Below are positions 1-28,479 of a stretch of DNA of 64,000 nt, in pieces. The notes under the pieces were generated by a model, which saw nothing but the letters and a program-made list of their open reading frames with translations, searched no databases and was not told the origin of the DNA. Positions within the stretch are counted from its first letter, which is position 1. Every line of letters begins with the position of its first letter. The stretch covers positions 27,300-91,299 of the forward strand of contig CAZIVR010000002.1 in the NCBI GenBank assembly GCA_964542745.1. Reading direction: 5' to 3'. Source of the DNA: an uncultured bacterium (lineage in GTDB: Bacteria; Eisenbacteria; RBG-16-71-46). The position numbers and the translations under genes are program-made.

Positions 1-32
1 AGTGCCCGTTCTGCGGGGCGTGGCGGCCCGGG

Positions 33-767
33 ATGTTCGGGGCGGCGCCCAGGCTGCAGCGCCTGTTCGGGGGCGGGCTCGACCTGATCGCCCCGCTGGT
101 GTCGGTGTGCGTGGTGCTCTACGTGGCCGCGCTGCTCCTCGACCTCTCGGCGCTGACCCGGAGCTTCGGGATCTTCAACTTCCTTTCGCCCGGGACGCGC
201 GCCCTCTACCAGCTCGGCATGACCGGGGGCGTGGCGTGGCGCGAGGGCTGGTGGTGGACGGTGTTCACCGCGATCTTCCTGCACGGATCGCTGATCCACA
301 TCTTCTTCAACGTGATGTGGATCCGCGACCTCGGTCCGGCCGTCTCGCAGGCCTATGGCCCGGCACGGGCGTTCGTCATCTTCATGGTGGGCGGCGTCGC
401 GGGCTTCGTGGTGTCCAACCTCGTGGCCGGCTCGCCCACGGTCGGCGCCTCGGGCAGCATCTTCGGCCTGCTCGCGGCCATGATCGTGTTCGCCCGCCGC
501 ACCGGCTCGTCGGTCATGAAGGCGCAGCTGTGGCAGTGGGCGATCATCCTGTTCGCGATGGGCTTCCTCATGTCGAGCGTCAACAACTGGGCGCACGGCG
601 GCGGCTTCGCGGGCGGGTGGGCGGCGGCGCAGGCGATGGGGCTCGGGGGCGAGCGGCGCGAGAGCCCGGCGGTGCAGGTGCTGGCGATCGGTTTCATCCT
701 CGTGACCCTCGCGGGATTCGTGATGTCGTTCGTCAAGGTGACCAGCATCCTGATCGGGGGGCGCTAG
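33..767 (+). CDS. Rhomboid family intramembrane serine protease
   Basis: 244 aa, multiple TM segments. Rhomboid catalytic motifs are present: the GxSG serine (GASGSIFG) and a downstream His in a TM helix (AHGGGFAGG). ATG at 33. Confidence 0.75.
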   Translation: MFGAAPRLQRLFGGGLDLIAPLVSVCVVLYVAALLLDLSALTRSFGIFNFLSPGTRALYQLGMTGGVAWREGWWWTVFTAIFLHGSLIHIFFNVMWIRDLGPAVSQAYGPARAFVIFMVGGVAGFVVSNLVAGSPTVGASGSIFGLLAAMIVFARRTGSSVMKAQLWQWAIILFAMGFLMSSVNNWAHGGGFAGGWAAAQAMGLGGERRESPAVQVLAIGFILVTLAGFVMSFVKVTSILIGGR

Positions 768-769
768 GC

Positions 770-3496
770 GTGGCCGGCCGCTTCTTCGAGTCGCGTTTCC
801 GTCAGCCGCTCGGGGAGTTCGTGACGCTCGCCCCCGAGCAGCGCGCCGCCGTGGTGCGCGAGGCGATCCCCGACCTGAACGTGTTCCTCGACGACGGCCG
901 CGCGCCGGGCGAGCGCGACGCTCCCGCCCGCAGCCTCGAGCTGGCGCGTTCGCTGTTCGCGGCGCTCGAGCACCTCCCCGACGAGAGCGCGGCGGGACGC
1001 TCGGGCGCGCGGGCCGAGACGCTCGCCGCGCGCCTCGTCACCGACTCCCTGCTGCGCGCCGAGGCCGACCGCGACCAGAACGTCTACCTCGGGAAGCTCT
1101 TCACCCGCACGCTCACCCGCGCGGTGCCGGACCTGATCTTCCAGCCGGTCTCGCTCGCGGAGGCCGCCGCCACGCTGCGCTGGGCCCGCGAGCACGGCGT
1201 GCCGATCGCGGCCCGCGGCGCGGCCTCCACCGCGATGGGGGGCGCGGTCCCGAACGACGGCGGCCTCGCGCTCGACCTCTCGAGGCTCGATTCGGTGGAC
1301 GTCGAGGCCGGGAACGGCGTGGTGGTGGTGGGCGCGGGCGCGCGGCTGCGCGCGGTGCACCGCAGGCTCGCCGCGGCACGGCTCGCGCTCCCCGTCTACC
1401 CGTCGAACCTGGGCGGCACCTTCGCGGGCTGGTTCGTGACCGGCGGCATCGGCCTCAACGCGTTCGGCCGCGGCCGCGCGCTCGACGCGGTGCGCTCGGC
1501 GGACGTGCTGCTGCCGGACGGCGACCACGTGAGGTTCCACGACGACGGCCGCCTCGACGTGCCGGGGCCCGCCGAGCACCGGCGCACGCTCGACGCGGCG
1601 CAGGCCGCCGCGTGGTTCCGGGAGCGCGGCTCCGAGCCGCTCGCGCTCGCCGATCTCGCCGGGAGCGAGGGCGTGCTCGGGCTCGTCACCCATCTCACGC
1701 TGCGCGTCGAGCCGCTTCCCGACTTCGCCGCGTTCCTGCTCGAATTCGACGGGCCGCTCGCAGCCTTCGAGGCCGCGGCGTGGGTGGCGGCCGAGGCCGG
1801 CCGGCGCTTCGGCGCGCCCGCCAACCTGAAGGCGATGTCGGGCTCGCACCTCCACCACGCGCGGGAGGCGTGGCGGGACGACGACGCGCGCGACTGGCGC
1901 CGGTCCGGGGCCGAGCCCGGCGGCGCGCACCTGCCGTGGGGGAGGATCGAGCCGCCCGGACGGTTCCTGCCGGGGACCCTCGAAGCGGCCGGCGACGCAC
2001 GGCACCGCGCGGCCGCGAACGGGGACCCGCCCGGCGACGCGGGGCACGAGCCCGCGCGGCACGGGGCCGGGCGCCACGCGGAAGGCAGCGCGCTGTTCGT
2101 GGACTTCACCGACTTCGCCGCGGCCCACGCGTTCGCCGCCGCGCTCGCCGACCTGCCGGGGCGCCCGCGGCTGCTCGGCGCCGAGAGCGCGCGCTTCGCG
2201 GCCGAACGCTTCCGCCCGCAGCAGGTCAAGCGCTTCGGCCCCGGGATGCTGGCCGCCGAAATCGTGATGCCGGCCGAAGAGGTGACGCGCTTCGTGCCGC
2301 GCGCCGCGCGCCTCGCGCGCAACGCGGGCAACCAGCTCGACGCCGAGGTCTACTACCTCGCCGACGGCACCGCGCTCGCGATCGCGGGCTACCTGACCGA
2401 CCACCGCTGCCTGGACTTCGCCGTGGACCTGATGATCGCGCCCGCGCTCACCGAGCTGGCGATGCGCTCGCACCGGGGCCGCCCCTACGTGCTCGGCCGC
2501 TGGCAGTCGCCGTGGGCCGCCCGCAAGTTCGGCGCGGAGGGGCTCGCGCGGCTCGCGCGCGCGAAGCGCGGGCTCGATCCGCACGGGCGGCTCAATCCCG
2601 GCGTCCTGCTGGGATTCCGGCTGCGCGGCGCGCTCGGCGCGGTGGTGGCGGCCACCTTCGCTCCCGGGGTCGCCGTGCTGTCGCGCGTCTATTCGCTCCG
2701 CCCGTTCTCGCCGCTGGTGCGGGCGGCGCGCGCCGCCCTCGCGCCGTTCCGGGGACCGGCCTGGGGGCACGGGGAGCCGGCCGTGGCCGCCACCCCGCAG
2801 GAGGCCTCCTCGCGGGCGCTCCACTGCGTCAACTGCGGCGAGTGCAACAGCGTGTGCCCAATCTTCCACGAGTCGAAGATCCGCCTGCCGCAGATGCTCA
2901 CCCACCTCGGCGAGGCCGCGCACGCGGGCGCGGCCGTGCCCGGCACCGGCAGCGTCCTGCTCGACCTGTGCATGCGCTGCGGCAACTGCGAGGAGGCCTG
3001 CCAGGCCGGGATCCCGCACCTGCCGCTCTACGAGCGGCTGCAGCAACTCTCGGACGCGGTCCGGCCGCCCGACCGCGAGCGGCACACCGCGATCGTGGCG
3101 GCGGTGCGCGGCTCGCAGAAGTACGTGCGCGAGTTCCTCGACGTCCGCCCGGGGGGCTACGTGAAGCGGGCGCCGGCCTCGCTCCCGGGCGTGGCGCGCT
3201 ACCTCCTGCTGCGGGCCGAGAACGACGCGGGCCCGGCCTCGACCTGCATCCACTGCGGGGCGTGCGTGGCGGTGTGCCCGACCCACGCCAACCGCGAGTT
3301 CGAGGGCGGCGACCCGCGCGCGATCACGACGCTGCAGGAGCGCTGCGTGGGCTGCGGAACCTGCGTCGAGGTGTGCCCCGCGAACCTCGCCAACGGCGGG
3401 CGCACCCTGCGGGTGATGGAGGCGCCGACCGCCGACTGGGCGGCCGCGGTCGCGGAGTTCGAAAGGGGCGAAGGCGCGGGCGTTTCCGGCCGATGA
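770..3496 (+). CDS. FAD-binding (FAD-linked oxidase/GlcD-like) oxidoreductase fused to two 2x[4Fe-4S] ferredoxin domains
   Basis: The N-terminal FAD-binding PCMH-type domain shows in the frame-2 translation (AARGAASTAMGGAVP...GGTFAGWFVTGGIGLNAFG). The C-terminus carries four CxxCxxCxxxCP motifs (CVNCGECNSVCP, CMRCGNCEEACQ, CIHCGACVAVCP, CVGCGTCVEVCP). Start assigned to GTG 770, 2 nt after the rhomboid stop. The first ~255 codons of the six-frame ORF 2..3496 are the alternative frame of the rhomboid gene. Confidence 0.7.
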   Translation: MAGRFFESRFRQPLGEFVTLAPEQRAAVVREAIPDLNVFLDDGRAPGERDAPARSLELARSLFAALEHLPDESAAGRSGARAETLAARLVTDSLLRAEADRDQNVYLGKLFTRTLTRAVPDLIFQPVSLAEAAATLRWAREHGVPIAARGAASTAMGGAVPNDGGLALDLSRLDSVDVEAGNGVVVVGAGARLRAVHRRLAAARLALPVYPSNLGGTFAGWFVTGGIGLNAFGRGRALDAVRSADVLLPDGDHVRFHDDGRLDVPGPAEHRRTLDAAQAAAWFRERGSEPLALADLAGSEGVLGLVTHLTLRVEPLPDFAAFLLEFDGPLAAFEAAAWVAAEAGRRFGAPANLKAMSGSHLHHAREAWRDDDARDWRRSGAEPGGAHLPWGRIEPPGRFLPGTLEAAGDARHRAAANGDPPGDAGHEPARHGAGRHAEGSALFVDFTDFAAAHAFAAALADLPGRPRLLGAESARFAAERFRPQQVKRFGPGMLAAEIVMPAEEVTRFVPRAARLARNAGNQLDAEVYYLADGTALAIAGYLTDHRCLDFAVDLMIAPALTELAMRSHRGRPYVLGRWQSPWAARKFGAEGLARLARAKRGLDPHGRLNPGVLLGFRLRGALGAVVAATFAPGVAVLSRVYSLRPFSPLVRAARAALAPFRGPAWGHGEPAVAATPQEASSRALHCVNCGECNSVCPIFHESKIRLPQMLTHLGEAAHAGAAVPGTGSVLLDLCMRCGNCEEACQAGIPHLPLYERLQQLSDAVRPPDRERHTAIVAAVRGSQKYVREFLDVRPGGYVKRAPASLPGVARYLLLRAENDAGPASTCIHCGACVAVCPTHANREFEGGDPRAITTLQERCVGCGTCVEVCPANLANGGRTLRVMEAPTADWAAAVAEFERGEGAGVSGR

Positions 3497-3653
3497 CAGG
3501 CCCGGCTGGCGCCCTCCCGGGCGGCCTGCCACAATGGACGCCGCTCGACGCATGGAGGGGCTCTTCGCGGGGACACTCGCGGCGGGCCCGAACGTCACGC
3601 ATCGGTCCCGGTGGGTCGAAGGGCTCCCCGCGGCCGAAGACCGAAAGGATGTC

Positions 3654-5864
3654 ATGACCCACCCGACCCGCGGTTCCGCGCGCCTCGCGGCGCACGTTCG
3701 CCACCCCCGCAGCTTCGACGCCCCCCGGCTCCCGGACGGCCACCGCGCCCCGGTGAGCGCCTACTTCGGGCGCCACGTCCTCGACCTCATCAAGCTCAAG
3801 GAGCGGCTGCCGCGCGAGGCCTACCAGGCCCTGCTCGGCACCCTGCGCAGCGGCGCCCCGCTGGCCCGCGAGACCGCGGAGACCATCGCCTCGGTGGCGC
3901 GCGAGTGGGCCACGTCGCACGGCGCCACCCACTTCACGCACTGGTTCCAGCCCATGACCGGGCTCACGGCCGAGAAGCACGACAGCTTCATCGACCTGAA
4001 CGTCACGATGAGCGGCGAGCTGAAGGTGCTCGAGCGCTTCTCGGGCTCGCAGCTCACGCAGAGCGAGCCGGACGCGTCGTCGTTCCCCTCGGGCGGCGTG
4101 CGCAGCACGTTCGAGGCGCGCGGCTACACCGCGTGGGATCCCTCGTCGCCCATGTTCCTGGTCGAGAGCCTGAACGGGCGCACCCTGTGCATCCCGTCGG
4201 TGTTCGTGAGCTATCACGGCGAGAGCCTCGACCACAAGACCCCGCTGCTGCGCGCGCTCGAGGCGCTCGACGTGAACGCGCGCGCGTTCCTCAAGCTGCT
4301 CGGCGACGTGGACGTGCAGTCGGTGGGTTCGACGCTCGGCTGCGAGCAGGAGTACTTCCTGGTGGACCGCGACCACTGGGCGCAGCGCCCGGACCTGGTG
4401 ATGACCGGCCGCACCCTGCTGGGCGCGGCGTCGGCGCGCGGGCAGCAGTTCGAGGACCACTACTTCGGCTCGATCCCGGCGCGCGCGCTGGCGTTCATGG
4501 AGGAGATGGAGTTCGAGCTGCACCGCCTCGGCGTGCCGGTGAAGACGCGGCACAACGAGGTGGCGCCGATGCAGTTCGAGATGGCGCCGATCTTCGAGGA
4601 CGTGAACCTCGCCAACGACCACAACGCGCTGGCCATGGACATCATGCGCAAGGTCGCGCTGCGCCATCACTTCGTCTGCCTGCTGCACGAGAAGCCGTTC
4701 GCGGGCATCAACGGCAGCGGCAAGCACTGCAACTGGTCGCTGGTCACCGACCGCGGCGAGAACCTCTTCGACCCGGGCCGCACGCCGCACCAGAACCTGC
4801 GCTTCCTGGCGTTCGTGGCCGCGGCCCTCAAGGCCGTGCACGACCACTCGGACGCGCTGCGTTACTCCGTGGCCTCGGCGGACAACGACCTGCGGCTGGG
4901 CGCGAACGAGGCGCCGCCGGCCATCATCAGCGTGTTCCTCGGCGACCTCCTCACCCAGATCATCGAGCGCATCGCCTCGGGCGAGACCGTGAAGGACCCC
5001 GAGTCCTACGTGCTCGAGATGGGCGTGGGCCGGCTGCCTCAGCTGGCGAAGGACTACACCGACCGCAACCGCACCTCGCCGTTCGCCTTCACCGGGAACA
5101 AGTTCGAGTTCCGTGCGGTGGGCAGCAGCGCCAACACCGCCCAGCCGATGATGATGCTGATCGCGGCGATGGCCGACAGCCTGCGCCAGCTCGGCGGGCG
5201 GCTCGAGGCGCGCATCAAGGCGGGCGGCGGCCGCGACCAGGCCGTGATCGCGCTGCTGCGCGAGGTGTTCACCGAGTCCGCGGCGATCCGATTCGAGGGC
5301 AACGGCTACAGCGAGGAGTGGAAGCGGGAGGCCGCGCGGCGCGGGCTGCCGAACCTGCCCGACACCCCCGCCTCGATCGCGGCGGTCTCGGCCCCCGGCC
5401 GGATGGCGTTCCTGACCGAGCTCAAGATCTTCACCCCCCGCGAGCTCGAGAGCCGGATCAACGTCGCGGTCGAGCGCTACCTGAAGACGGTGATGCTCGA
5501 GGCCGAGACGGTGATCGAGATGCTCTCGACGCAGGTGATCCCGGCGGGCGAGGGCGCGCTGGCCCGGGCGTCCGAAGCGTCCGCGGCGGCGAAGGCCGCA
5601 GGCGTCACCTCGGCCGCGCTGGCCGGGCGTGCCGGGGCGCTGGCCCAGGCGCTGGACGCGGCGGCCGCGAGCGTGGCGCGCCTCGAACAGCTGCTGGCCG
5701 ATGGCGAAGGCCTGCACGACGAACGCAAGGAGGCCGAGCATCTCGCGTCGCGGGTGCGTCCCGCGCTGGGCGAGGCCCGCGAGGCCGCGGACCGGCTCGA
5801 GCACCTGGTGGACGACTCGGCGTGGGAGCTGCCCAAGTACCGAGAGATGCTGTTCGCGCGCTGA
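3654..5864 (+). CDS. glnN: Glutamine synthetase type III
   Basis: 736 aa from ATG 3654, with AAAGGA 5 nt upstream. GSIII-type length and the NGSGKHCNWSL signature both fit. The larger ORF from 3534 has no Shine-Dalgarno sequence (SD) and an extra 40 aa. Confidence 0.8.
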   Translation: MTHPTRGSARLAAHVRHPRSFDAPRLPDGHRAPVSAYFGRHVLDLIKLKERLPREAYQALLGTLRSGAPLARETAETIASVAREWATSHGATHFTHWFQPMTGLTAEKHDSFIDLNVTMSGELKVLERFSGSQLTQSEPDASSFPSGGVRSTFEARGYTAWDPSSPMFLVESLNGRTLCIPSVFVSYHGESLDHKTPLLRALEALDVNARAFLKLLGDVDVQSVGSTLGCEQEYFLVDRDHWAQRPDLVMTGRTLLGAASARGQQFEDHYFGSIPARALAFMEEMEFELHRLGVPVKTRHNEVAPMQFEMAPIFEDVNLANDHNALAMDIMRKVALRHHFVCLLHEKPFAGINGSGKHCNWSLVTDRGENLFDPGRTPHQNLRFLAFVAAALKAVHDHSDALRYSVASADNDLRLGANEAPPAIISVFLGDLLTQIIERIASGETVKDPESYVLEMGVGRLPQLAKDYTDRNRTSPFAFTGNKFEFRAVGSSANTAQPMMMLIAAMADSLRQLGGRLEARIKAGGGRDQAVIALLREVFTESAAIRFEGNGYSEEWKREAARRGLPNLPDTPASIAAVSAPGRMAFLTELKIFTPRELESRINVAVERYLKTVMLEAETVIEMLSTQVIPAGEGALARASEASAAAKAAGVTSAALAGRAGALAQALDAAAASVARLEQLLADGEGLHDERKEAEHLASRVRPALGEAREAADRLEHLVDDSAWELPKYREMLFAR

Positions 5865-5877
5865 CGGAGAACGAGCC

Positions 5878-8800
5878 ATGACCCCCGACGCGGATCGGCA
5901 GGCAGGCGCCCCGGAGCGGGCGCCCCTGCCGCCCGCGAACGGGATCCCGGACGCGGCGCGGGAGTGGGAGGACCTGCTCGCCCTCGTCGTGGATCCCGAG
6001 AGCCCGCGCGTCGCCGGCCGGGCGCGCAAGCGGCGGCTGCTCTCGCACCTGCTGCGGCGCGCGGGGCTCGACGAAGCGGACTTCTGGAAGCTGCACCGCG
6101 GCCAGCGCGGCCGGCTGTTCCTGTCGCGCTACTCGCGGGTGTCCCGCGAGATCCCGCGGCTCGAGATCACGTCGTTCGATCTCGACAAGCTCCTCAAGGA
6201 GCGCTACCGGCAGGAGCCGCTCACGCTGGGAGCGGCGTGGCACCACGGCTTCTGGCGCTCGTACTTCTCGCACGCGGCGATCACGCACCCCGCCAACGAC
6301 GGGCTGCGCGAGGAGTTCTCGACCGCGTGGGACATCGTGCGCAAGCACCCGGCGGTGCTGTTCCGCACCGGGTCGGGCCGGGAGCGCGAGACGCTGCGCG
6401 GGATCCGCCTCGACCTGCCGATGATCGTCGGCCCGCTGCCGCACCCGGGCGACGGCCGGATCGAACGCGCCTACCTCGACGCGATCGCCGACCCCGGGCC
6501 CGGCGAGGGCCTCCACACCGGAACCCTGCTGGTGATGGACGCGATCCGCTACCTCGAGCGCCTCGAGGCGTTCGCGGGGCGCGAGGCGGACCTCCTGCTC
6601 CGGATTCCCGCCGACCTCCAGCCGTGGCTGGACGGCGAGGGCGAGCGGTTCGACGCGCTGCGCGAGGCGCTCCGGCGCGCGCGCATCGTGGAGCTGGAGT
6701 GGAGCGACGACCTCCCGGGCGCGGTGGCGCGCGTGCGCGAGGTGAACCCCGCGCTCCTGGTCTCGGTCTACCTGCGCTACGGCGGCGGGGACGAGGGGCC
6801 GAACGGCGCGCCGCCTCCGCCCGACGAGGCGCTCTCGCCCGCCGCGGGGCGGCTCGCCGGCCCCGGGTTCTGGGCCGCGGTCGAGGCCGCGGCGCGGCAG
6901 GACGGGGTGGCGGCCCTGCACGTCCACGCCGGCCCCGAGAAGTCGTACCGGCTGGTCCCGAAGCTCGACGCGTTCCTCAAGGCCCGCCTGGTGCGCGCGC
7001 GCGTGCAGCTCGTCTCGGCGGGGGGCGACTCCGACACGCAGGCCTCGGCGGCGACGGTCTACGAATCGGTGTTGCTCGGCGCCAACGGCGGCTCGATGTC
7101 GCACGTCGCGGGAATCGCGCTGTGCCCGGAGCTGATCGACGCGTACCACGGGGCCGACGCGGGCGCGGCGCTCGCCACGCTCGCCGAGCGCACGCCGGAG
7201 GAGCTGCGCGACCTCGCGGCCAACACGCTCACCTGCTGGCAGCACTCGATCCTCGACTTCCTGTCGTGCATGGGGATCGACGACATCCAGAAGACCTCCG
7301 GGAACACCATGGCGATCACGATGACCGCCGAGTGGGTCCGGGAGTGCGACCGGCTGGCCACGCCCGAGTTCGGGCGCCTGAACGCCGGGCTCAACGCGGC
7401 CCGGATCGCGGCCGAGCCTCCGCCCGCGGCGGTGCGGGAGCGCTTCAAGGTGTCGAGCCTGCTGCGCGAGGTCGAGCCGGGCCTGCCGCGGGTGCACGCG
7501 GCCCGCGTGCTCGACCACGGCAACGCCAACTACCACCTCGAGAACTCCAACCGGAACCTGAGCGCCGACTTCCTCGACGTGATCTACCGGATGTCGGCGG
7601 GGGAGATGCCGCGCGCGGAGGACTTCTTCATCGAGAGCGACATGGGCCCGCTCTCGCTCGACCGCGTGGGGCTGCGGCTCTCGCGGGAATCTCTGGAGTG
7701 GTCGCTCGAGCGGTTCCGCCGCGATCCCGGGCTCCTCGACTACGTGTCGCTGGCGGTGCCGCGCGGCTTCCTGCGCCCGGGCGCCGCGCCCCCGCTCTGC
7801 GAGGTGCGGCTCCTTGCCGCCCTCGACGAGGACAGCGACGGGGAGCAGGTGGTCGAGCCCGCGCCGCTGGTCCGATTCGCCTCGGACGCCGAGGGCGGCT
7901 TCGACCTCGCGCTCGCCGCCGATCCCGCGCTCGAGGCGGCGGTGGCGGGCGATGCCCCGCTGTGGCTGGTCACGGTGGACGCCGAGGGCCGCGAGGCGCG
8001 CACCGCGCTCGCCGCGCACGGCCACGGCGGGCACGGGCTCTCGATCGCGCGCGCCTCCCGGGACGGCGCCGTGGTGCTGCGGCGCGAGCCGCGCGGCGGC
8101 TACCGGCTCTCGGGGTTCGGGTTCCGCGAGCCGATCTGGCACGGGCCGGTGAACCACTCGAGCATCTCGCTGGGTGCCGCGAGCGAGGACTTCCTCACCG
8201 CGCGCGTCGAGGGCAACCGCGGCCTCTCGATGACCTCGTCGGGCGAGGGCGGCCCGATCCGGCTCGCGAGCGACGACGACATGAAGTGGGAGAGCCTGCA
8301 GGCCGCGAGCGGGCACTTCGGCATCCACGCGGCCGACCTGCGCCGGGTGCGCGACGTGGAGATCAAGATCAACCAGGGCGCCAAGCCCGGGAAGGGCGGA
8401 AGGCTCTCGGGCGCGAAAGTCACGCCGACCGTGAGCCGCGCGCGCAATATCCCGGTGGGCACCGACGCGCTCTCGCCCGATCCCAAGCACGACATCTACT
8501 CGATCGAGGACATGCCGGCCGAGGTCTGGCTCTGGCTCCTCTACCACAACCACTGCGGCATCAAGATCACCGGCTCCAACTACACGCGCTACGTCGCCGC
8601 CGGCATGTGGTCCAACTTCGTGGTGGACTACCTGCTGGTGGACGCGGGGCTCGGGGGCTCCGGCAACTACCACGCCGACTCGTCGCACGTGGGCTGGCCC
8701 GACATCTTCCGCACCATCCTGCACACGCACCACGCGCTGGTGTCCGAGAAGGTGGACCTCGAGAAGACCGGCGAGCTCAAGCCGATCCGCGACCTGAACG

Positions 8801-11800
8801 GCGCCCCGTTCGGGGCGAAGGGCGGGACCCGGCTGTTCGCCTCGGGCGGCATCCGGGGCGAGGTGGACATGCTCAAGGTGCTGATCGCCGGGGCCGACGC
8901 GCTCATGGAGGCCAGCATCGGCAAGGCGGTGGCATTCGGCTGCAACCAGTGCGGCAACTGCCACCTCGACTGCCCGCGGGGCGGCATCACCACCAAGGCC
9001 GAGCTCACCATGCAGAACGACCGCGCCCTGATGCGGCGGCGCTTCCGCAACTGGACCGCGCTCAACATGGTGAAGCTCGCGATCCTGGTGGACGCGCTGA
9101 ACCGCGAGTCCGGCGCGCTCGCCGCCGACGGCGCGGTGGCGGACGCGGGGGCGCTGCTTTCCGACATCCGCGCGCTGCGCGGGCGAACCGACCTGCTGGC
9201 GATGCCGGACCACGGCGCGTCCGAGCGGCCCGCGAGGCCCGAAGCCGACCACGACTCGTGCCGCGTGGGCTCGCTCGCCGTCTCGGAGCCGGTCACCGTG
9301 GACGCGATCTGGGAGTCGGCGCGGCTCTCCTACAACGGCGGCAACAACCGCGGCGGCGGCATCGACTTCGCCGGGTTCGCCCCGGCCCCGCTGCGCGAGC
9401 GGACCTGCCTGATCTTCAACACCATCGGCCCCGACCGCGCGGACACGATGCGCGAGATGCTCGGCCACCTCGCGGGCTGCCGCTTCTTCGACGCCGCGGG
9501 CCGCGAGCGCACCGCGCAGGAGGTGCGCGAGGGGCTCGCCGCGTACCGCGTGCCCGTGCGGGAGCGGTACGCGCACGAGACCGGGTGGCGCGACGCGGAC
9601 CTGCGCGAGAACCCCGGCGACTTCTACATGTTCTTCGTCGGGCTCGCGCCGTCGGTGCTGCGGCGCTACGGCCGCGCGCTGGTCGCGAGCCCGCACTGGC
9701 TCCAGCGCCGCACCCAGTACGGCGACCTGTCCGAGGACTCGCTGCACGCCGCGCTCGACGCGGCGGCGGCCGCGGAGGAAGCGGCGGGCGCGGAGCGGCC
9801 CGCCGGCGCCGCGGACGACGCGGGAGCGGCGCCCGGGAGCGCCGCGGGCGGCCCCGCGCCTCGCGAACGGCTCGAGGCGTTCGTCGCCGACGTGCGCGAG
9901 GAATACTTCTCGGCGCTCGCCCACCTGGTCGACACCCGCTACTACCGCACCCACCTTCCGCCGCCCGGGCCCGGCGGCGCGCCCGCGCCGGAAGGAAAGT
10001 ACGCGGCCAAGCGGCGCGGCTTCGTGGTCTCGATGGGCGAGGACCTCGGCGCGATCAAGATGTCGGGCTGGACCCACACCATCCCCGAGTACTTCGACTT
10101 CGAGCGCTTCTGGGCGGGCTACCCCGGCGCGGGGCCGGAAGGCGTGGAGGTCCGCGTGAAGGGCGCGACGCGGCGCACCACCGCGCTGCACGCCCACGCC
10201 TGGGGCATGCACCACCGTTACCCGACCAACTCGCCGGCGATCGACGCCGAGGGGCGCGGCAACCCGGCCGGGGCGCATCCCTTCAAGGCCTACAACGTGC
10301 TGCTCATGCACAACGGCGAGCAGGTCGGGGTGGACTCGACCTCGCCGTTCCTCAACGAGTTCGGGTACGTGCACGCCGATCCCTCGATGGGCGAGGGGCA
10401 CGCGCTCTACCACGGCGACTCGATCTACGAGCGCAAGGCCCTCACCGACACCGAGTACGCCGCCTACCTCGTGGACTTCACGCGCCGCGTGCTCGGGCTC
10501 TCGACCGAGGAGGCCTCGCAGGTGATCTCGCCGATCACCGGGCTGGATCTCGCCGCCATGGACGACGCGCGCCGCGAGCTGCTCACGCTGCTCATGACCA
10601 ACTACGTGCAGCTCACGCCCACCGGGCCCTACAAGTTCACGATCGTCGAGTCGCGGCGCGGCCCGGCGGGCCGCGTGATCGGCTTCCGCGAGAACATGGA
10701 CATCAAGTTCCTCCGCCCCCACGAGATCCTCGTGAGCCGCGACGCCTCGGCGGGGGGCGTGACCGCGGTCGCGAACGGGAGCGAGGCCAAGATCGCCGAC
10801 TCGATGCTGCGCGTGCTCCACCGCCAGGGAGTGCTCGGCGACGCGGCCGCCGACCTGCGCTTCAGCATGCGGCCGGGCGGCAACCCGGGGCGCCGCGACT
10901 TCGGCGGCGTGTTCGAGGCCTTCACGAGCCCCGGGAGCGGGGCGATCGAGCTGCGGAACCGCTTCGGCGAGGACGTTCCGGTGGACCGCGCCGGCGCCAA
11001 GGTGGATCTCGCCCGGCCGCTCGCGGACGCGGTGGCGGGCGCGAGCCCGGAGTGGGCGAGGCTCGTGTCGGAGCGGCTCGAGCAGCTCGGGCGCCTGCTC
11101 GACGGCGCGGGCGGCATGAGCGCGGGCCGGCTGTTCGGCCCCGACGACCTGCTGCCGGCGCCCGCCTCGGAGCTGGTGGAAGCCGCGCTCGAGCGCGCGC
11201 TGGAGCTGTCCTTCGACGACCTCCGGCTGCTCGCCGAATCCGCGCTGCCGGCTTTCGCCGCGGCGGGCGACGCGCGGCGCGCGGCGGCGATCCGCGTGCT
11301 CACGGAGCTGCGCAAGCGCTTCGCCTTCGCGGACCTCGGCGGCAAGTCGCTGTCGAGCGTCGAGTACCTGGTGGACGGCGGGCGCGACGCCGCGGGCGCC
11401 CCGGAGGGCGGGCTCGCGCGCCTCTTCGACGCGGTGCCGCCGCTCTTCGAGGTGCTGCGGCGGCCGCCGGGGGGCACCCGCTACGCGCGCCTCACGCTCG
11501 GCACGCGCGACGACCTCTCGCCGCCCGGGAACGCCGCGCGCGACGTGCTGGTCGTGGACTTCGCCGGCTTCGAGAGCGAGTCGTTCGGCCTCGACTCCGC
11601 CTCGCGCATCGTGAGCCGCGCGGTGCGGCTCGGCTGGCGGAACCTGGTGGGTTACGGGTTCGTCGGCGGCCCGCGCTACGTGGGGACCAACCTCGGCGAC
11701 GCGCGCGGCGTGGCCGCGCCGGGCGTGGTGATCGAGCTCTACGGCCGGGAGTTCGGCGACTTCATCGGCGCCCTCCTCGAGGGCGCGAGCATCGCCGTCT

Positions 11801-12471
11801 ACGGCCAGGGCCAGAGCCACCTCGGGATGAAGGCCGACTCCGGGGACCTGTTCGTGCTGCAGGACATGCTCAACACCGGGATGTACGCCGCCCACGGCGG
11901 CACCGTGAGCGTGTGGGACTCGGGCTCGCGCTTCGCCGCGGCCGGCCAGAACAAGGTGACGCTCGCCGACGGCAAGACCCCCGCGCAGGGGTTCCGGTCG
12001 CTCCACTGGGGATCGCCCAACGAGTACGCGTTCGAGTACCTGATGTCGGGCGGCGACAATTCGCTGCACGTCGTGATGGGACTCCGGAAGCCCGACGCGC
12101 GCGGCGAGCTGGCGCTGCGCCCCAAGCCCTACGCCGGCAAGTTCTTCATGTCGGGTGCGGCGGCCGGCCGCGTGTTCGTGTTCGACCCGGGCGTGAAGCT
12201 CGATCCCGCCCAGTACCACGGCAACGTCCCGTCGCGGATCACTCCCGCCGAGTGGGAACGGGAGCTGGCCCCGTTCCTCGCGCGCGACGCCCGGCGGCGG
12301 GGGCTGCCGCTGCGCGTCGAGGGCGAGTTCGTGACGCTCCGGCTCGAGGGCGATTGGAAGCGCTGGCGCTACGACGAGGCGTTCGTGAAGCTGATCCCGC
12401 TCAAGGTCGCGAAGGCCGCCCAGCAGCAGGGCGTGGTGGCCCCCCAGCTCGCGCAGATCGTCGGCGAGTAG
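5878..12471 (+). CDS. Giant glutamate synthase-like protein (FMN-binding GltS domain + internal class-II amidotransferase-like domain + C-terminal GXGXG beta-helix domain; ~700 aa N-terminal region unassigned)
   Basis: 2198 aa from ATG 5878, GGAGA 7 nt upstream, 13 bp after the glnN stop. The FMN domain shows the GOGAT signatures QGAKPGKGGRLSGAKV, SPDPKHDIYSIEDMP, DAGLGGSG, ASGGIRGEVDMLKVLIAGADA and GCNQCGNCHLDCPRGGITT. The GATase-2-like block reads HHRYPTNSPAIDAEGRGNPAGAHPF...LMHNGEQ...TDTEYAAYLV. The GXGXG domain reads VGYGFVGGPRYVGTNLGD...AVYGQGQSHLGMKADSGDLFV...AAHGGTVSVWDSGSRFAAAGQN. Confidence 0.75.
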   Translation: MTPDADRQAGAPERAPLPPANGIPDAAREWEDLLALVVDPESPRVAGRARKRRLLSHLLRRAGLDEADFWKLHRGQRGRLFLSRYSRVSREIPRLEITSFDLDKLLKERYRQEPLTLGAAWHHGFWRSYFSHAAITHPANDGLREEFSTAWDIVRKHPAVLFRTGSGRERETLRGIRLDLPMIVGPLPHPGDGRIERAYLDAIADPGPGEGLHTGTLLVMDAIRYLERLEAFAGREADLLLRIPADLQPWLDGEGERFDALREALRRARIVELEWSDDLPGAVARVREVNPALLVSVYLRYGGGDEGPNGAPPPPDEALSPAAGRLAGPGFWAAVEAAARQDGVAALHVHAGPEKSYRLVPKLDAFLKARLVRARVQLVSAGGDSDTQASAATVYESVLLGANGGSMSHVAGIALCPELIDAYHGADAGAALATLAERTPEELRDLAANTLTCWQHSILDFLSCMGIDDIQKTSGNTMAITMTAEWVRECDRLATPEFGRLNAGLNAARIAAEPPPAAVRERFKVSSLLREVEPGLPRVHAARVLDHGNANYHLENSNRNLSADFLDVIYRMSAGEMPRAEDFFIESDMGPLSLDRVGLRLSRESLEWSLERFRRDPGLLDYVSLAVPRGFLRPGAAPPLCEVRLLAALDEDSDGEQVVEPAPLVRFASDAEGGFDLALAADPALEAAVAGDAPLWLVTVDAEGREARTALAAHGHGGHGLSIARASRDGAVVLRREPRGGYRLSGFGFREPIWHGPVNHSSISLGAASEDFLTARVEGNRGLSMTSSGEGGPIRLASDDDMKWESLQAASGHFGIHAADLRRVRDVEIKINQGAKPGKGGRLSGAKVTPTVSRARNIPVGTDALSPDPKHDIYSIEDMPAEVWLWLLYHNHCGIKITGSNYTRYVAAGMWSNFVVDYLLVDAGLGGSGNYHADSSHVGWPDIFRTILHTHHALVSEKVDLEKTGELKPIRDLNGAPFGAKGGTRLFASGGIRGEVDMLKVLIAGADALMEASIGKAVAFGCNQCGNCHLDCPRGGITTKAELTMQNDRALMRRRFRNWTALNMVKLAILVDALNRESGALAADGAVADAGALLSDIRALRGRTDLLAMPDHGASERPARPEADHDSCRVGSLAVSEPVTVDAIWESARLSYNGGNNRGGGIDFAGFAPAPLRERTCLIFNTIGPDRADTMREMLGHLAGCRFFDAAGRERTAQEVREGLAAYRVPVRERYAHETGWRDADLRENPGDFYMFFVGLAPSVLRRYGRALVASPHWLQRRTQYGDLSEDSLHAALDAAAAAEEAAGAERPAGAADDAGAAPGSAAGGPAPRERLEAFVADVREEYFSALAHLVDTRYYRTHLPPPGPGGAPAPEGKYAAKRRGFVVSMGEDLGAIKMSGWTHTIPEYFDFERFWAGYPGAGPEGVEVRVKGATRRTTALHAHAWGMHHRYPTNSPAIDAEGRGNPAGAHPFKAYNVLLMHNGEQVGVDSTSPFLNEFGYVHADPSMGEGHALYHGDSIYERKALTDTEYAAYLVDFTRRVLGLSTEEASQVISPITGLDLAAMDDARRELLTLLMTNYVQLTPTGPYKFTIVESRRGPAGRVIGFRENMDIKFLRPHEILVSRDASAGGVTAVANGSEAKIADSMLRVLHRQGVLGDAAADLRFSMRPGGNPGRRDFGGVFEAFTSPGSGAIELRNRFGEDVPVDRAGAKVDLARPLADAVAGASPEWARLVSERLEQLGRLLDGAGGMSAGRLFGPDDLLPAPASELVEAALERALELSFDDLRLLAESALPAFAAAGDARRAAAIRVLTELRKRFAFADLGGKSLSSVEYLVDGGRDAAGAPEGGLARLFDAVPPLFEVLRRPPGGTRYARLTLGTRDDLSPPGNAARDVLVVDFAGFESESFGLDSASRIVSRAVRLGWRNLVGYGFVGGPRYVGTNLGDARGVAAPGVVIELYGREFGDFIGALLEGASIAVYGQGQSHLGMKADSGDLFVLQDMLNTGMYAAHGGTVSVWDSGSRFAAAGQNKVTLADGKTPAQGFRSLHWGSPNEYAFEYLMSGGDNSLHVVMGLRKPDARGELALRPKPYAGKFFMSGAAAGRVFVFDPGVKLDPAQYHGNVPSRITPAEWERELAPFLARDARRRGLPLRVEGEFVTLRLEGDWKRWRYDEAFVKLIPLKVAKAAQQQGVVAPQLAQIVGE

Positions 12472-12552
12472 GCGCCTCGCGGCGACGCGCGGAGCCTGTT
12501 AGCTTTGCCCGCGCCGCACGATGACGGACCCATCCGCCCCGAGGAGTCTTCG

Positions 12553-13848
12553 ATGACCGTTCCCGCGTCCTCCGCCGCACCCGCGGTGACCGACCACTCG
12601 CTCTCGCGCCTCGCGCGCGGCATGGTGGGATCCGAGGTGCTCCGCATCGCCGCCGAGGTGCGCGCCGCGATCGCCGCCGGAAAGCCGATCTGCAACCTCA
12701 CGGTCGGCGACTTCGACCCGAAGGAATTCCCGCTGCCCGCGCCGCTGGTCGCCGGGATCAAGCGCGCGCTCGACGCCGGACACTCGAACTACCCGCCCTC
12801 GAACGGCATCCCCGAGCTGCGGAAGAGCGTGGTCGAGTTCTACCGCCGCGAGCTCGGCCTCGATTTCGGCGTGGATTCGGTGGTGGTGGCGGGCGGGGCG
12901 CGGCCACTCATCTACGCGACCTACCGCACGCTGGTGGACCCGGGGGAGCACGCCGTGTTCCCGGTGCCCTCGTGGAACAACAACCACTACGCGTACCTGA
13001 CCGGCGCGCGCGCGGTGGCGCTCGAGGTCAGGCGCGAGCACGGCTTCCACCCCACGCCCGAGCAGGTCGCGGCGCAGCTCCCGACCGCCCGCCTCGTCGC
13101 GCTCTGCTCGCCGAGCAACCCCACCGGCACCGCGATCGGGTCCGCCGCCCTCGCGGAGATCTGCCGGGCGATCGTGGCCGAAAACGAGAAGCGTGCCGCG
13201 AAGGGCGAACGGCCCGTGTTCCTGATGTACGACCAGGTCTACTGGGCCACCGCCTTCGGCGAGGCGAAGCCGGCGATGCCGACCGCGCTGGTGCCGGAGG
13301 TCGCCCCCTACACCGTGCTCATCGACGCGATCTCCAAGTCGCTCGCCGCGACCGGCCTGCGGGTGGGCTGGGCGGTCGCCCACCCGGCGGTGATGAGCCG
13401 CATGTCGGACTTCCTCGGCCACGTCGGCGCGTGGGCGCCCAAGCCGGAGCAGGTCGCGACCGCCGAGTTCCTCGCGGACGCCGCCGCGTTCGCCGAGCAC
13501 CGCGCCTCGATGGAGCGCCGCCTGCGCGAGCGGCTCGAGGCGCTGGCGGCCGGTTTCCGGCGCCTCCGCGAGCGCGGCGTCGCGGTCGAGGCCACCGAGC
13601 CCGAGGGCACGCTCTACCTGTCGGCCCGCTTCCCCCTCGGCGTCACGGCGCGTGGCCGGGAGCTTCGCACCAACGAGGACGTGCGGCGGCTGCTGCTCGA
13701 GGAGGCCGGGCTCGCGGTGGTGCCGTTCCAGGCGTTCGCGCTTCCCGACGAGGGCGGCTGGATGCGGCTCTCGGTGGGCGCGGTGTCCCTGCGCGCGATC
13801 GAGGACGGCATGGCGCGGCTCGGGCAGGTGATGGAGGGGGCGAGGTAG
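12553..13848 (+). CDS. Class I/II PLP-dependent aminotransferase (aspartate aminotransferase-like)
   Basis: PLP-lysine motif SKSLAATGLRVGW plus NPTGT. ATG 12553 with GAGGAG 6 nt upstream. Confidence 0.8.
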   Translation: MTVPASSAAPAVTDHSLSRLARGMVGSEVLRIAAEVRAAIAAGKPICNLTVGDFDPKEFPLPAPLVAGIKRALDAGHSNYPPSNGIPELRKSVVEFYRRELGLDFGVDSVVVAGGARPLIYATYRTLVDPGEHAVFPVPSWNNNHYAYLTGARAVALEVRREHGFHPTPEQVAAQLPTARLVALCSPSNPTGTAIGSAALAEICRAIVAENEKRAAKGERPVFLMYDQVYWATAFGEAKPAMPTALVPEVAPYTVLIDAISKSLAATGLRVGWAVAHPAVMSRMSDFLGHVGAWAPKPEQVATAEFLADAAAFAEHRASMERRLRERLEALAAGFRRLRERGVAVEATEPEGTLYLSARFPLGVTARGRELRTNEDVRRLLLEEAGLAVVPFQAFALPDEGGWMRLSVGAVSLRAIEDGMARLGQVMEGAR

Positions 13849-13869: not shown

Positions 13870-14361
13870 GTGAGCCGATTCACCGTGACCGCGTGGGTGC
13901 TGGGCGGGCTCTTCGGCCTCGCCGCCGGGATCGGCGGCTTCACGTTCATGTACGCCGAGGGCGCCTCCTACCTCGGGCACGACTCGGCCGCGTGCGCCAA
14001 CTGCCACGTCATGCGTGAGAACTACGACGGCTGGCTCAAGTCGAGCCACCGGGCGGTGGCGGAGTGCAACGACTGCCACACCCCGCACGAGCCGGTCCAG
14101 AAGTACGTCACCAAGGCGATCAACGGATTCAACCACTCGACCGCATTCACCACCGGGCGCTTTCACGAGCCGATCCGGATCAAGCGATGGAACCGCGAGA
14201 TCGTCGAGCGCGCCTGCCGCCACTGTCACGGGGACATCGTCGAGGCGATGGTTTCGGGCGAGGGCCCCCACGGGGGCGCCGGCGCCGAAGTTTCCTGCGT
14301 CCGCTGCCACGGGTCGGTGGGGCACTCCGATCCGGGCTTCGCGGCCCAACCGGGGAGGTAG
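13870..14361 (+). CDS. nrfH: Cytochrome c nitrite reductase small subunit NrfH (NapC/NirT tetrahaem quinol dehydrogenase)
   Basis: 163 aa with an N-terminal TM helix and four CxxCH motifs (CANCH, CNDCH, CRHCH, CVRCH). GTG 13870 follows GGGAGGGG. Confidence 0.8.
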   Translation: MSRFTVTAWVLGGLFGLAAGIGGFTFMYAEGASYLGHDSAACANCHVMRENYDGWLKSSHRAVAECNDCHTPHEPVQKYVTKAINGFNHSTAFTTGRFHEPIRIKRWNREIVERACRHCHGDIVEAMVSGEGPHGGAGAEVSCVRCHGSVGHSDPGFAAQPGR

Positions 14362-14363
14362 GC

Positions 14364-15779
<1,416 letters not shown>

Positions 15780-20868: not shown

Positions 20869-22376
20869 GAGCACCTCGCGCGAGTGCGGAGGTGGGGCCC
20901 GCCGCTCGTCACCGGCACGAACTCCTTGTGGCCCTTGCCGCAGGTGCCGGGCTCCAGCTCGAAGTCGTTCGCGATCTTCGTGATGTTGGAGAGGATCTCC
21001 GGCACGTAGCCGGTCACGGTGACCGGGGAGAAGATCCGCCCGGTGGGCTTGCCCTTCCGGTACTCGCGGGCGACGTTGGCCGTGAACTGGATGCCCCAGC
21101 CCTGCGGGTCCTCGATGCCGTTGCGGAATCCCTCGAGCACCATGCCGTCCTCGAGGTCCGCGAGCAGCTCGGCGGGCTCGCTCGTGCCGCGCGCGAAGAA
21201 CGTGTTGGACATGCGCGCGTACACCTTGCGGTCCCACGCCTGCGCCCGGCCGTTCGGGGTGCGCGGCGTGCCGAGCACGGTGGCCGACATGAGATCGGTG
21301 AGGGGCCGCACGAACACTCCGTCCTCGATGATGGTGGTGGGCGCGGCCAGCACCCCCTCGTCGTCGAAGGGGTACGAGCCGCGCGCGCCCGCGATCGAGG
21401 GATCGTCGAGCAGCGTGACGATCTTCGAGGCCACCGGCTTGCCGAGGAACTCGCGGGCCTTGGCCCGGTCCTTCACGAACTGGTCCATCTCGACGCCGTG
21501 CCCGAAGCTCTCGTGCGCGAGCAGACCCGACACCGGGGGCGAGAGCACCACGTCGTACTCCCCGGCGGGCATGGGCTCGGCCCCGAACGACTCCGCGAAC
21601 TCCCGGCGCATGCGCTCGACCTGCGCGTCGGTGAGCGCGGCGAGTTCGAGCCCGCCCTGGCCGGTGCGCCGCGCGAAGCCGAACCCCGGCTTGCCCTGGT
21701 CGAAGCCGAACAGCAGGACGTTGTGCGACACCATGGTGCGCTGGCTCGCGAGCCGGCGCGTCGGATCCACGAACAGGCGCCGCACGTCCACGACCTCGGT
21801 GCTGACCCGCACGCTCCGCACCCGCGGGTCGTCGAGGTTCACGCGGTCGAATTCCGCGTCCACCGCCGCCACGCGCTCGGCGAGCGGGACCGCCGCGGGG
21901 TCGCGCTGCCCGCGCTCGCTCCAGCTCCGGACCAGCGGCGGCAGCGGCGCGATGCGGTGGAGCGCCTTGCCGGCGGGCACGTCGCGGAGCAGGCCGCGCG
22001 CGGCCTCGCGGAGCGCGTCGCGGGAGGTGCCGCCCACACCCGCCTCGTGGAACACGGCGCCGTCGAACACGCGCAGGGTCACGCCGCGCGAGGGGAAGCC
22101 CGCCTCGCTGACGCGCTTCCCGTTCCGGTCGCGGCTGATGCTCACGCCGGCGCTGGACATGAAGAGCGCCGAGGCGTAGGGGAATTTCCGGCGGAGGTCG
22201 GCCACGATGGCGGCCAGATCGTCGCCGAGCGTTCCGGGGAAGCCGTCGCCGGCGGGCGGCGCGGCACGGCCTTCGCGAGCGAAGAGGATCTGCTCGGCGA
22301 GGGACCCCGCGACCAGCACGCCGGCGAGCGACGCGCCGCCGCGCAGCAGGAATTGGCGACGATCGAGCGGAACCAT
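20865..22376 (-). CDS. tldD: TldD family metalloprotease with twin-arginine (Tat) signal peptide
   Basis: HESFGHGVE (HExxxH) motif. The N-terminus MVPLDRRQFLLRGGASLAGVLVAGSLA carries an RRxFL Tat motif. Confidence 0.7.
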   Translation of the reverse strand: MVPLDRRQFLLRGGASLAGVLVAGSLAEQILFAREGRAAPPAGDGFPGTLGDDLAAIVADLRRKFPYASALFMSSAGVSISRDRNGKRVSEAGFPSRGVTLRVFDGAVFHEAGVGGTSRDALREAARGLLRDVPAGKALHRIAPLPPLVRSWSERGQRDPAAVPLAERVAAVDAEFDRVNLDDPRVRSVRVSTEVVDVRRLFVDPTRRLASQRTMVSHNVLLFGFDQGKPGFGFARRTGQGGLELAALTDAQVERMRREFAESFGAEPMPAGEYDVVLSPPVSGLLAHESFGHGVEMDQFVKDRAKAREFLGKPVASKIVTLLDDPSIAGARGSYPFDDEGVLAAPTTIIEDGVFVRPLTDLMSATVLGTPRTPNGRAQAWDRKVYARMSNTFFARGTSEPAELLADLEDGMVLEGFRNGIEDPQGWGIQFTANVAREYRKGKPTGRIFSPVTVTGYVPEILSNITKIANDFELEPGTCGKGHKEFVPVTSGGPHLRTRARCS

Positions 22377-22656
22377 GGGGGCGCACGGTACGCGGCCGGA
22401 CCCCCGGGTCTCAACCCCTCCGGACCTGCGTGCCGTGGCGCGGGACGAGCGCGGGGGAGGGCGCCGCGGGAATCGGGCCCGATCCCCCGGGGGGCCTGGG
22501 CCGTGCGGATACCGCTTTCCGCGCCGGGCGATCCCGCGTAGACTCTTCGCCGTTCTTCCCGCCCGCATCCACGGTGCCGGCCCCAGCGGGCCGGCGCTCG
22601 AATTCAATGACCGGCCCTCCGCCGCGGGGCTGCTTCCGGAAAGGCACGTCCCCGTC

Positions 22657-28382: not shown

Positions 28383-28479
28383 GGGCCGGCGATCCTAGCA
28401 GGTGGGCGAGGGAGCGCGCCGGAATCGGCCGCGCCCGCCGGACGCGGCGCCCGGCCCCGAGTTCTGACATGATGCGCGG

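Follow-up and report, generated by a model that had tools for sequence, protein, structure and literature searches.

An open reading frame (ORF) at positions 5878..12471 (+) of the DNA analyzed here (64,000 nucleotides of contig CAZIVR010000002.1, assembly GCA_964542745.1, from an uncultured bacterium of the Eisenbacteria lineage RBG-16-71-46; hereafter the window) encodes a single chain of 2197 residues and 237 kDa. By homology this protein, here termed the giant, is related to the glutamate synthase (GOGAT) protein GltB, yet it is not a canonical GltB. Together with its relatives, it appears to represent a new form of GOGAT-type machinery, in which the domains are fused in a permuted order, the nucleophile, which is of the N-terminal nucleophile (Ntn) hydrolase type, is internal and the electron-input partner is new. 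The interpretation which we hold to be somewhat likelier true than false is that the giant is a GOGAT-type enzyme that would cleave itself between Ser1127 and Cys1128 and that would obtain its electrons from a flavin adenine dinucleotide (FAD)/iron-sulfur (Fe-S) protein encoded upstream.

Domain architecture of the giant

The ORF comprises 2197 codons plus a stop codon; the initial annotation had treated it correctly as a real ORF, albeit with a product one residue too long (2198). A GGAG sequence, representing a putative ribosome-binding site (RBS), is located 9 nt 5' of the ATG, the G+C content at third codon positions (GC3) of this frame is 0.97, and an identical protein (P0001) is already on record at NCBI. 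A protein database search returned a family of at least 144 clusters, sharing 56-81% identity with the query across 98-100% of that sequence, nearly all of which are 2100-2300 residues long; a family of proteins in excess of 2000 residues, as had been envisaged, thus exists. Named entries of this family read 'glutamate synthase-related protein', which is all that automated annotation says of it. No curated model names the family and no NCBIfam model is matched at its cut-off, the score of the giant against the NCBIfam GltB equivalog (PRK11750) being 75.5 bits and therefore below the threshold of 1047. Conservation is high along the entire chain, including the N-terminal 750 residues. A genome scan employing one genome per species yielded 114 confirmed matches, of which 69 loci were kept; all 69 derive from metagenome-assembled genomes (MAGs), with no cultured organism among them. 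The majority belong to Candidatus Eisenbacteria, and the remainder to Thermoleophilia and other Actinomycetota, Planctomycetota, Latescibacterota and Krumholzibacteriia. The motif counts given below refer to 109 aligned family members.

The giant is composed, from its N-terminus, of a degenerate barrel, a flavin mononucleotide (FMN)/Fe-S domain, a linker rich in Ala, Pro and Glu, a class-II glutamine amidotransferase (GATase) domain, a helical linker and a GXGXG domain. The non-canonical order that had been claimed for it was therefore confirmed, i.e., barrel-FMN-GATase-GXGXG as compared to GATase-central-FMN-GXGXG in GltB. The sole Pfam domain detected in the giant is Glu_synthase (PF01645), with no Pfam match to Glu_syn_central (PF04898), and Pfam searches with isolated segments (the N-terminal domain, the GATase-like region and the C-terminus) returned no matches. 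Delimitation by Pfam was thus successful for the FMN domain, while the other domains were seen only via split relatives.

The FMN/Fe-S 'synthase' domain spans residues 757-1059 (8146..9054 (+); Pfam Glu_synthase, E 3.5e-44). Its presence had been noted correctly, with the position given as ~830-1110. Residues 759-1038 were aligned by hhalign with residues 859-1119 of Escherichia coli GltB at a probability of 99.2%, and the family profile matches GltB structures in the PDB (E 1.4e-23). The domain contains the cluster motif C1022-x2-C1025-x2-C1028-x3-C1032-P (8941..8976 (+)), which was found in 109/109 members. In the hhalign alignment, the E. coli GltB segment 'GCKYLRICHLNNC' contains three Cys, which we take to be [3Fe-4S] ligands, and these are matched by C1022, C1028 and C1032, while C1025 is an extra, invariant fourth Cys that generates CxxCxxCxxxCP in every member; on account of this four-Cys motif the Cys1022-1032 cluster is likely to be a [4Fe-4S] cluster. 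Also invariant in the family are SGEGG, QGAKPG and an Arg located 20 residues beyond the Lys, positions that presumably correspond to E903, Q969, K972 and R992 of ferredoxin-dependent GOGAT (Fd-GOGAT).

The FMN/Fe-S domain is followed by a hypervariable Ala/Pro/Glu-rich linker (residues ~1108-1124; 9199..9249 (+)), which varies in sequence and, from 19 to 99 residues across the family, in length, with conservation resuming 3-4 residues ahead of Cys1128. Ser1127 and Cys1128 (TCG TGC; 9256..9261 (+)) constitute the predicted autoproteolytic site and N-terminal nucleophile, and are invariant in the family. Cys1128 sits within the motif '(E/D)(H/R)DSCRV', likewise invariant, and its counterpart in the split proteins described below is the Cys of 'EEGGCGV'. 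A search for a Cys ahead of the GATase block, as proposed in the initial annotation, thus identified an invariant residue with a counterpart in the 'GGCGV' of split proteins. In canonical GltB and GlsF the homologous Cys is N-terminal, being exposed when a short propeptide is removed, whereas in the giant it is residue 1128 out of 2197.

At this residue begins the class-II (Ntn) glutamine-amidotransferase-like domain (residues 1128-~1700; 9259..10977 (+)), which carries large insertions and was recognized through split relatives and hhalign. Its internal location and its motifs had been annotated correctly, but its extent had been given as ~1400-1500, whereas the domain starts approximately 300 residues earlier. 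The candidate catalytic set, consisting of C1128, R1158, R1447, N1479-G1480 and D1524, is invariant and follows the order of the class-II family. HHRYPTNS, AHPF, HNGEQ and TDTEY are each present in 108-109 of the 109 members, as are all of the candidate catalytic motifs. Furthermore, 'NNR1158GGG' lies 30 residues past Cys1128, a spacing identical to that between Cys12 and Arg42 of E. coli GltB.

Since GATase tests with the giant family alone were not significant, split intermediates were sought. A profile of residues 1121-1718, when compared with 1.84 billion representative proteins, retrieved only 131 matches, among which, apart from fragments of giant-family proteins, were proteins of ~880-900 residues. 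These relatives possess Pfam GATase_6, GATase_4 or GATase_7 at the matching place and a C-terminal GXGXG domain, and one of them was found to match plant PurF, the GlmS glutaminase domain, the GltB beta-helix and FwdC in the PDB. They are collinear with the giant from Cys1128 on and have a leader of ~40 residues ahead of the Cys; BLASTP of the giant against the GATase_6 split proteins gave E 2e-20 for the amidotransferase part. Using an enriched alignment in which the giant family and the split relatives were pooled, hhalign recovered the N-domains of E. coli GlmS (88.8%, E 2.5e-6), with R1447, N1479-G1480 and D1524 on matching motifs, of E. coli PurF (86.9%, E 4e-6), with R1447 and N1479-G1480 on matching motifs and the alignment ending before D1524, and of E. 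coli GltB (44.9%, E 2e-4), with 214 collinear columns. The GlmS and PurF motifs in question (HTRW/HVRY, HNG and TDTE/SDSE) presumably represent the catalytic Arg, Asn-Gly and Asp. As judged by these alignments, residues 1128-~1700 are a genuine class-II amidotransferase domain, divergent and insertion-rich, in which the catalytic-type residues have been kept.

The C-terminal GXGXG beta-helix domain, as initially annotated, was located at residues ~1882-2143 (11521..12306 (+)) by homology to split relatives carrying PF01493. BLASTP of the giant against the split proteins returned E values of 7e-17 and 8e-28 for the beta-helix part. The corresponding region of the split proteins is Pfam GXGXG (E 5e-14) and matches the GltB beta-helix and FwdC in the PDB, while the giant's C-terminus itself gave a weak direct alignment to residues 1275-1349 of 1ea0.

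The N-terminal ~700 residues had been described as devoid of an assignable motif, a claim that did not hold: residues ~122-476 (6241..7305 (+)) match a 621-residue FMN-type barrel protein encoded by a bacterial operon designated L080 (BLASTP E 3e-10; family hidden Markov model E 1.6e-14). This 621-residue protein possesses a Pfam Glu_synthase match (E 2.8e-15) and, in the PDB, matches other FMN TIM barrels in addition to the GltB FMN barrel, in the latter case its second half. The alignment between the two is collinear through the 'SGG...GAD' phosphate-binding region, and the Fe-S cysteines have been lost from the giant's copy. Because direct hhalign comparison of the giant's N-terminal domain with its own FMN domain was not significant, the barrel duplication was deduced via the L080 protein. 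The segment is thus assigned as a degenerate FMN-oxidoreductase-type (beta/alpha) barrel, paralogous to the GltB FMN domain and without Fe-S cysteines; that it is a degenerate second FMN-type barrel in place of the GltB central domain is probable, not proven. Between this barrel and the FMN domain, residues ~640-750 (window ~7795-8127) are beta-rich and poorly conserved, and are predicted to form a small beta domain (predicted local distance difference test (pLDDT) ~80) for which no relative was identified.

The FAD/Fe-S partner, split operons and fusions

Two genes upstream of the giant in the window is a gene, here called the partner, that encodes ~908 residues (770..3496 (+), the GTG start at 770 being approximate). 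Pfam identified a PCMH-type FAD_binding_4 domain at residues 120-256 (E 4.7e-26) and a weak FAD-oxidase_C match, and the protein also contains two dicluster [4Fe-4S] ferredoxin domains (residues 683-748 and 824-872). In four homologous loci, a protein of 842-896 residues with FAD_binding_4 and several Fer4 domains is encoded directly upstream of the giant, with a 4-nt overlap with its start; when the upstream genes of these loci were compared to the window by tblastn, the partner was retrieved at 51-59% identity. The partner is located upstream and on the same strand in all 54 of the 54 loci that contain the giant's N-terminus and upstream DNA, while in the 15 loci that lack it the sequence breaks off within the giant. 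In addition, it is fused to giant-type modules in three proteins, P0182, P0198 and P0248. This linkage and the 'Rosetta-stone' fusions argue strongly for joint action of the two proteins, and the partner is proposed to be the electron-input subunit. The absence of an adjacent gltD, as initially reported, was upheld, as tblastn with E. coli GltD found nothing in the 64-kb window, where a second gltB was likewise not found; the consistently linked FAD/4Fe-4S partner gene had, however, gone unnoticed.

The FAD domain of the partner resembles those of LctD, LDHD and GlcD. The partner was considered as a D-lactate, glycolate or D-2-hydroxyglutarate dehydrogenase that would supply the giant with electrons or with 2-oxoglutarate, candidates that were downgraded because the GlcD-type motifs are replaced in all partner-type sequences. 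The partner clade appears to be a distinct, uncharacterised branch of VAO/PCMH flavoproteins.

The origin of the giant can be read from the L080 operon, whose four genes lie on one strand with 4-nt overlaps. Its first gene encodes a 736-residue protein with FAD_binding_4, FAD-oxidase_C and Fer4 domains, the second the above-mentioned 621-residue protein with Fer4 domains and a partial Glu_synthase barrel, the third a 346-residue Glu_synthase FMN protein (E 1.7e-90), and the fourth an 898-residue protein with GATase_6 and GXGXG domains. Genes 2, 3 and 4 are homologous to the first, second and third part of the giant, respectively (BLASTP and Pfam). Since L080 possesses these modules as separate genes in the same order, the giant is, by this comparison, a fusion of three modules that are encoded separately in related bacteria, and the mid-chain position of the putative nucleophile Cys1128 is a consequence of that fusion; the initial proposal of split-GOGAT modules fused in a different order is thereby matched by actual separate genes. 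A two-gene form is found in locus L079, encoding a 507-residue Fer4 and FMN protein and an 878-residue GATase_6 and GXGXG protein. Archaeal GltB1/GltB2/GltB3-type genes presumably belong with such split GltB-like sets.

Larger fusions were also identified. P0236 (2204 residues, N-terminally truncated) comprises Fer4, barrels, GATase_6 and GXGXG, with an internal Cys in 'QSNCGVAAI'. In P0182 (3016 residues) the partner is fused ahead of the entire set and the internal Cys, in 'LDACGVVSF', lies near residue 1895, while P0198 (2508 residues, partial) is organized like P0182, with its internal Cys in 'DACGVVSF'. P0248 (3152 residues) consists of the GATase-GXGXG module, then the partner and then the barrels, its Cys being ~80 residues from the N-terminus. 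An internal GATase Cys is therefore present in three separate fusion lineages, i.e., the giant family, P0182/P0198 and P0236. As these fusions occur in at least two arrangements, the order of the modules seems not to be critical as long as the Cys can be exposed. A FAD_binding_4/Fer4 protein is linked or fused to FMN, GATase and GXGXG modules in the giant family, L080, P0182, P0236 and P0248. P0248, whose GATase Cys is at about residue 81, starts with a hydrophobic leader.

Between the partner and the giant lies a gene for a 776-residue type III glutamine synthetase (GSIII) of the GlnN type (3534..5864 (+); Pfam GSIII_N, E 7e-68, Gln-synt_C and Gln-synt_C-ter). GSIII occupies this position in the window and otherwise only in L017, L026, L031 and L051, all of which are Eisenbacteria, providing a link to glutamine metabolism in these five loci. 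Downstream of the giant is a class I/II aminotransferase gene (aspartate-aminotransferase-like by Pfam and NCBIfam; 12505..13848 (+)), directly followed by a NrfH-like (NapC/NirT) gene and a NrfA cytochrome c552 nitrite reductase gene (13870-15779 (+)). The cluster is co-directional, in the order partner, GSIII, giant, aminotransferase, NrfH and NrfA, and its composition suggests a nitrite-to-ammonium-to-glutamate gene set in the source organism. A search for conserved neighbours across the giant loci returned none besides the partner.

Proposed mechanism and alternative explanations

In the proposed GOGAT-type mechanism, self-cleavage between Ser1127 and Cys1128 would produce a ~122-kDa chain (barrel and FMN/Fe-S domain) and a ~115-kDa chain (glutaminase and beta-helix), which would stay associated. 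The freed Cys1128 would hydrolyse glutamine, the ammonia would reach the FMN site by channelling and react there with 2-oxoglutarate, and the resulting imine would be reduced to glutamate at that site, i.e., by GOGAT chemistry. The electrons would leave the FAD of the partner, travel through its [4Fe-4S] clusters (up to four) and arrive at FMN by way of the Cys1022-1032 cluster, rather than being supplied by GltD/NAD(P)H or free ferredoxin. In the source organism, the gene set may thus provide a route from nitrite through ammonium, glutamine and glutamate to other amino acids. Self-cleavage is invoked because class-II amidotransferases need the free alpha-amino group of the Cys and because the split relatives also have a leader. 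Self-cleavage is a property of Ntn hydrolases, and presumably accounts for the loss of the short leaders from GltB, PurF and the split relatives. An analogue of the proposed electron path is that of NADPH-GOGAT, which comprises GltD, [4Fe-4S], [3Fe-4S] and FMN (PMC8097209).

A number of observations weigh against this mechanism. The chemistry, the cleavage and the electron donor of the giant are all inferred from sequence. Neither Pfam nor NCBIfam directly detected the GATase or the GXGXG domain (PF01493) in the giant. The family-only hhalign comparisons with the N-domain and the C-domain of E. coli GltB were not significant, and the same holds for hmmsearch with the family segment against E. 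coli GltB, PurF, GlmS and AsnB, in which the motifs were placed correctly. As direct detection of the GATase and GXGXG domains failed, their homology rests on the split intermediates. Structure prediction was of little help: two predictions were of poor quality (pLDDT 60 and 54), the pLDDT of the AlphaFold2 model was below 50 over residues 1440-1705, and Foldseek with a low-confidence predicted model returned no significant match. In the synthase site, the GAKPGEGGQL of GltB is GAKPGKGGRL in every family member, representing two invariant changes. In D-2-hydroxyacid dehydrogenases, the GlcD-type motifs 'HxGDGNxH' and 'EHG' presumably provide the metal-binding residues His, His and Glu. According to the alignment, every partner-type sequence has 'YYLADGTAL' and 'RPYVLGRW' in their place, the latter varying as 'RPY(V/G)LG(R/I)W'; no substrate was assigned to the partner for this reason. 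Finally, the proximity of GSIII, the aminotransferase and NrfAH to the giant is not conserved across the family, and full-text literature searches found no description of the family.

The foremost alternative, which we regard as rather unlikely but not to be taken lightly, is that the same machinery performs a chemistry other than that of GOGAT, with a different amide donor, a different 2-oxo acid, or a redox-neutral cycle whereby the FMN site consumes the product or the electrons of a substrate oxidation carried out by the partner. The N-methylglutamate synthase MgsABC, which is not a GOGAT, demonstrates that split GltB-like sets may have another function (PMC6237917). The invariant K and R found in the synthase site in place of the E and Q of GltB could reflect a different 2-oxo acid or substrate specificity; the partner, moreover, belongs, as an atypical member, to the VAO/PCMH class of substrate dehydrogenases and not to the pyridine-nucleotide reductase class, and no NCBIfam model is matched at its cut-off. 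On the other hand, the Lys, Arg, Glu and Gln that presumably form the 2-oxoglutarate/imine site are invariant, the glutaminase-type residues are all retained, and the synthetase inserted in five loci is of the genuine GlnN type and not of the gmaS type. MgsABC, from Methylobacterium extorquens, furthermore differs in several respects. It consists of homologues of GltB1 (class-II GATase), GltB3 (GXGXG) and GltB2 (FMN) encoded beside a glutamine-synthetase-like gene, and its subunits of ~300, 225 and 442 residues, in the order A-B-C, have no FAD/Fe-S or other redox partner (PMC6237917), whereas the giant is a single 2197-residue chain with a partner and follows another gene order. The MgsABC-associated ligase is of the gmaS type with ~430 residues, as compared to the 776-residue GlnN-type ligase with GSIII_N in the window.

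Less probable again, and in our view quite doubtful, is an uncleaved chain in which the amidotransferase-like domain would be silent, having a structural or regulatory role, and in which free ammonia, for example from NrfA, would be used, making the giant a glutamate synthase dependent on ammonia. Consistent with such a chain, an internal Cys has no free alpha-amino group unless cleavage occurs, as follows from the general Ntn mechanism (cf. PMC3289653). NrfAH is indeed encoded downstream in the window, and Pfam is blind to the amidotransferase domain of the giant. However, Cys1128 and the other glutaminase-type residues are invariant across phyla, which would not be expected in a dead domain, while the leader ahead of the Cys in split relatives suggests that processing is normal for the clade, and NrfAH is not a conserved neighbour. 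An artefact, be it mis-assembly, a frameshift or a chance long ORF, has a negligible probability and is already refuted: spurious long ORFs are numerous at such a high G+C content (~74% in the window, with long ORFs in several frames), but the GC3 of the giant's frame, the RBS preceding its start, the occurrence in several phyla, and on independent contigs, of over 100 full-length orthologues, and the synteny conserved among loci of multiple genomes all argue for a real gene. Antisense to the giant is a 2204-residue ORF (5605-12219 (-)), an annotation trap in DNA of 74% G+C, and several antisense ORFs seem 'conserved' among loci because they shadow the real gene, and for no other reason.

The proposed GOGAT-type enzyme can be compared with several known systems. 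With the GltB/GltD enzymes (Azospirillum 1EA0/2VDC/6S6S and E. coli GltBD) the giant has the FMN/Fe-S domain in common and, as judged via the split relatives, the class-II amidotransferase and GXGXG modules; its amidotransferase domain is collinear with that of E. coli GltB (residues 163-378), and the Cys-to-Arg spacing is 30 residues in both. It differs from GltB in its permuted order, with the GATase after the FMN domain, in having a barrel instead of the central domain (no Glu_syn_central was detected), and in its four cluster Cys (CxxCxxCxxxCP) as opposed to three ligands. GltD is absent from the window, and a partner with FAD (PCMH) and up to four predicted [4Fe-4S] clusters is found instead. 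The general logic of an Fe-S chain feeding FMN is shared with NADPH-GOGAT (PMC8097209). Similar to Fd-GOGAT (Synechocystis 1LLW/1OFD; FMN match E 2e-15), the giant combines FMN and one Fe-S cluster in one large chain and lacks a GltD. Fd-GOGAT, however, exhibits the canonical order, an N-terminal Cys1 and a reliance on free ferredoxin, whereas the giant would employ a dedicated flavo-Fe-S protein that is genetically coupled and sometimes fused to it. In the split sets L080 and L079, the modules are separate polypeptides and the amidotransferase protein has its own N-terminus and ~40-residue leader; the first barrel protein of L080 keeps its Fer4 domains, while the N-terminal barrel of the giant lacks cluster cysteines.

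If cleaved, the giant would mature in a manner akin to penicillin acylase, gamma-glutamyltranspeptidase and glycosylasparaginase, in which an internal nucleophile cleaves the preceding bond and both chains stay in the enzyme, although these are simple hydrolases of a different Ntn family. The invariant His-Asp-Ser ahead of Cys1128 recalls what we take to be the His-Asp-Thr site of glycosylasparaginase, which is a lead rather than a test. To our knowledge, class-II amidotransferases have only short propeptides removed, whereas in the giant a catalytic module of 1127 residues would act as the 'propeptide'.

Nitrogen enters biomass by two routes, one of which is glutamate synthase; the known glutamate synthases differ mainly in how electrons are delivered, i.e., by NADPH/GltD, by NADH (the fused eukaryotic enzyme) or by ferredoxin. 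We tentatively put forward, with somewhat less than even confidence, that the giant and its partner represent a third mode of GOGAT electron supply, based on a PCMH flavoprotein with four [4Fe-4S] clusters and a donor that is neither NAD(P)H/GltD nor free ferredoxin, and at the same time the first class-II amidotransferase to have a complete catalytic module as its propeptide and to mature into a self-cleaved two-chain enzyme; Eisenbacteria and several other uncultured lineages from soil and groundwater may rely on it as their principal GOGAT. If so, the family, which is widespread among abundant yet uncultured bacteria of these habitats, would contribute a new electron-delivery module and a new maturation logic. 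The giant family would then be a case in which gene fusion has placed an Ntn nucleophile mid-protein, making autoproteolysis of an amidotransferase obligatory. The Rosetta-stone link would connect a VAO/PCMH flavoprotein to nitrogen assimilation and, for metabolic reconstruction from MAGs, genomes seemingly without gltBD may still possess a GOGAT.

Other genes of the window

Scans for promoters and terminators in this G+C-rich window were uninformative. A rhomboid-family protease gene (3-767 (+)) is located just upstream of the partner, and is similarly present in about ten Eisenbacteria loci (L011, L013, L014, L017, L023, L031, L034, L045, L047 and L061), representing lineage-level synteny. 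Further along the window, a 1171-residue SNF2-family helicase (28468-31983 (+)) has ~700 N-terminal residues without a Pfam match. An 887-residue protein (22180-24843 (+)) combines lamin-tail, Endonuclease I and FlgD Ig-like domains and is probably a secreted or surface nuclease, while a 943-residue protein encoded on the opposite strand (33311-36142 (-)) consists of TPR repeats and a C-terminal CHAT (caspase-like) protease domain.

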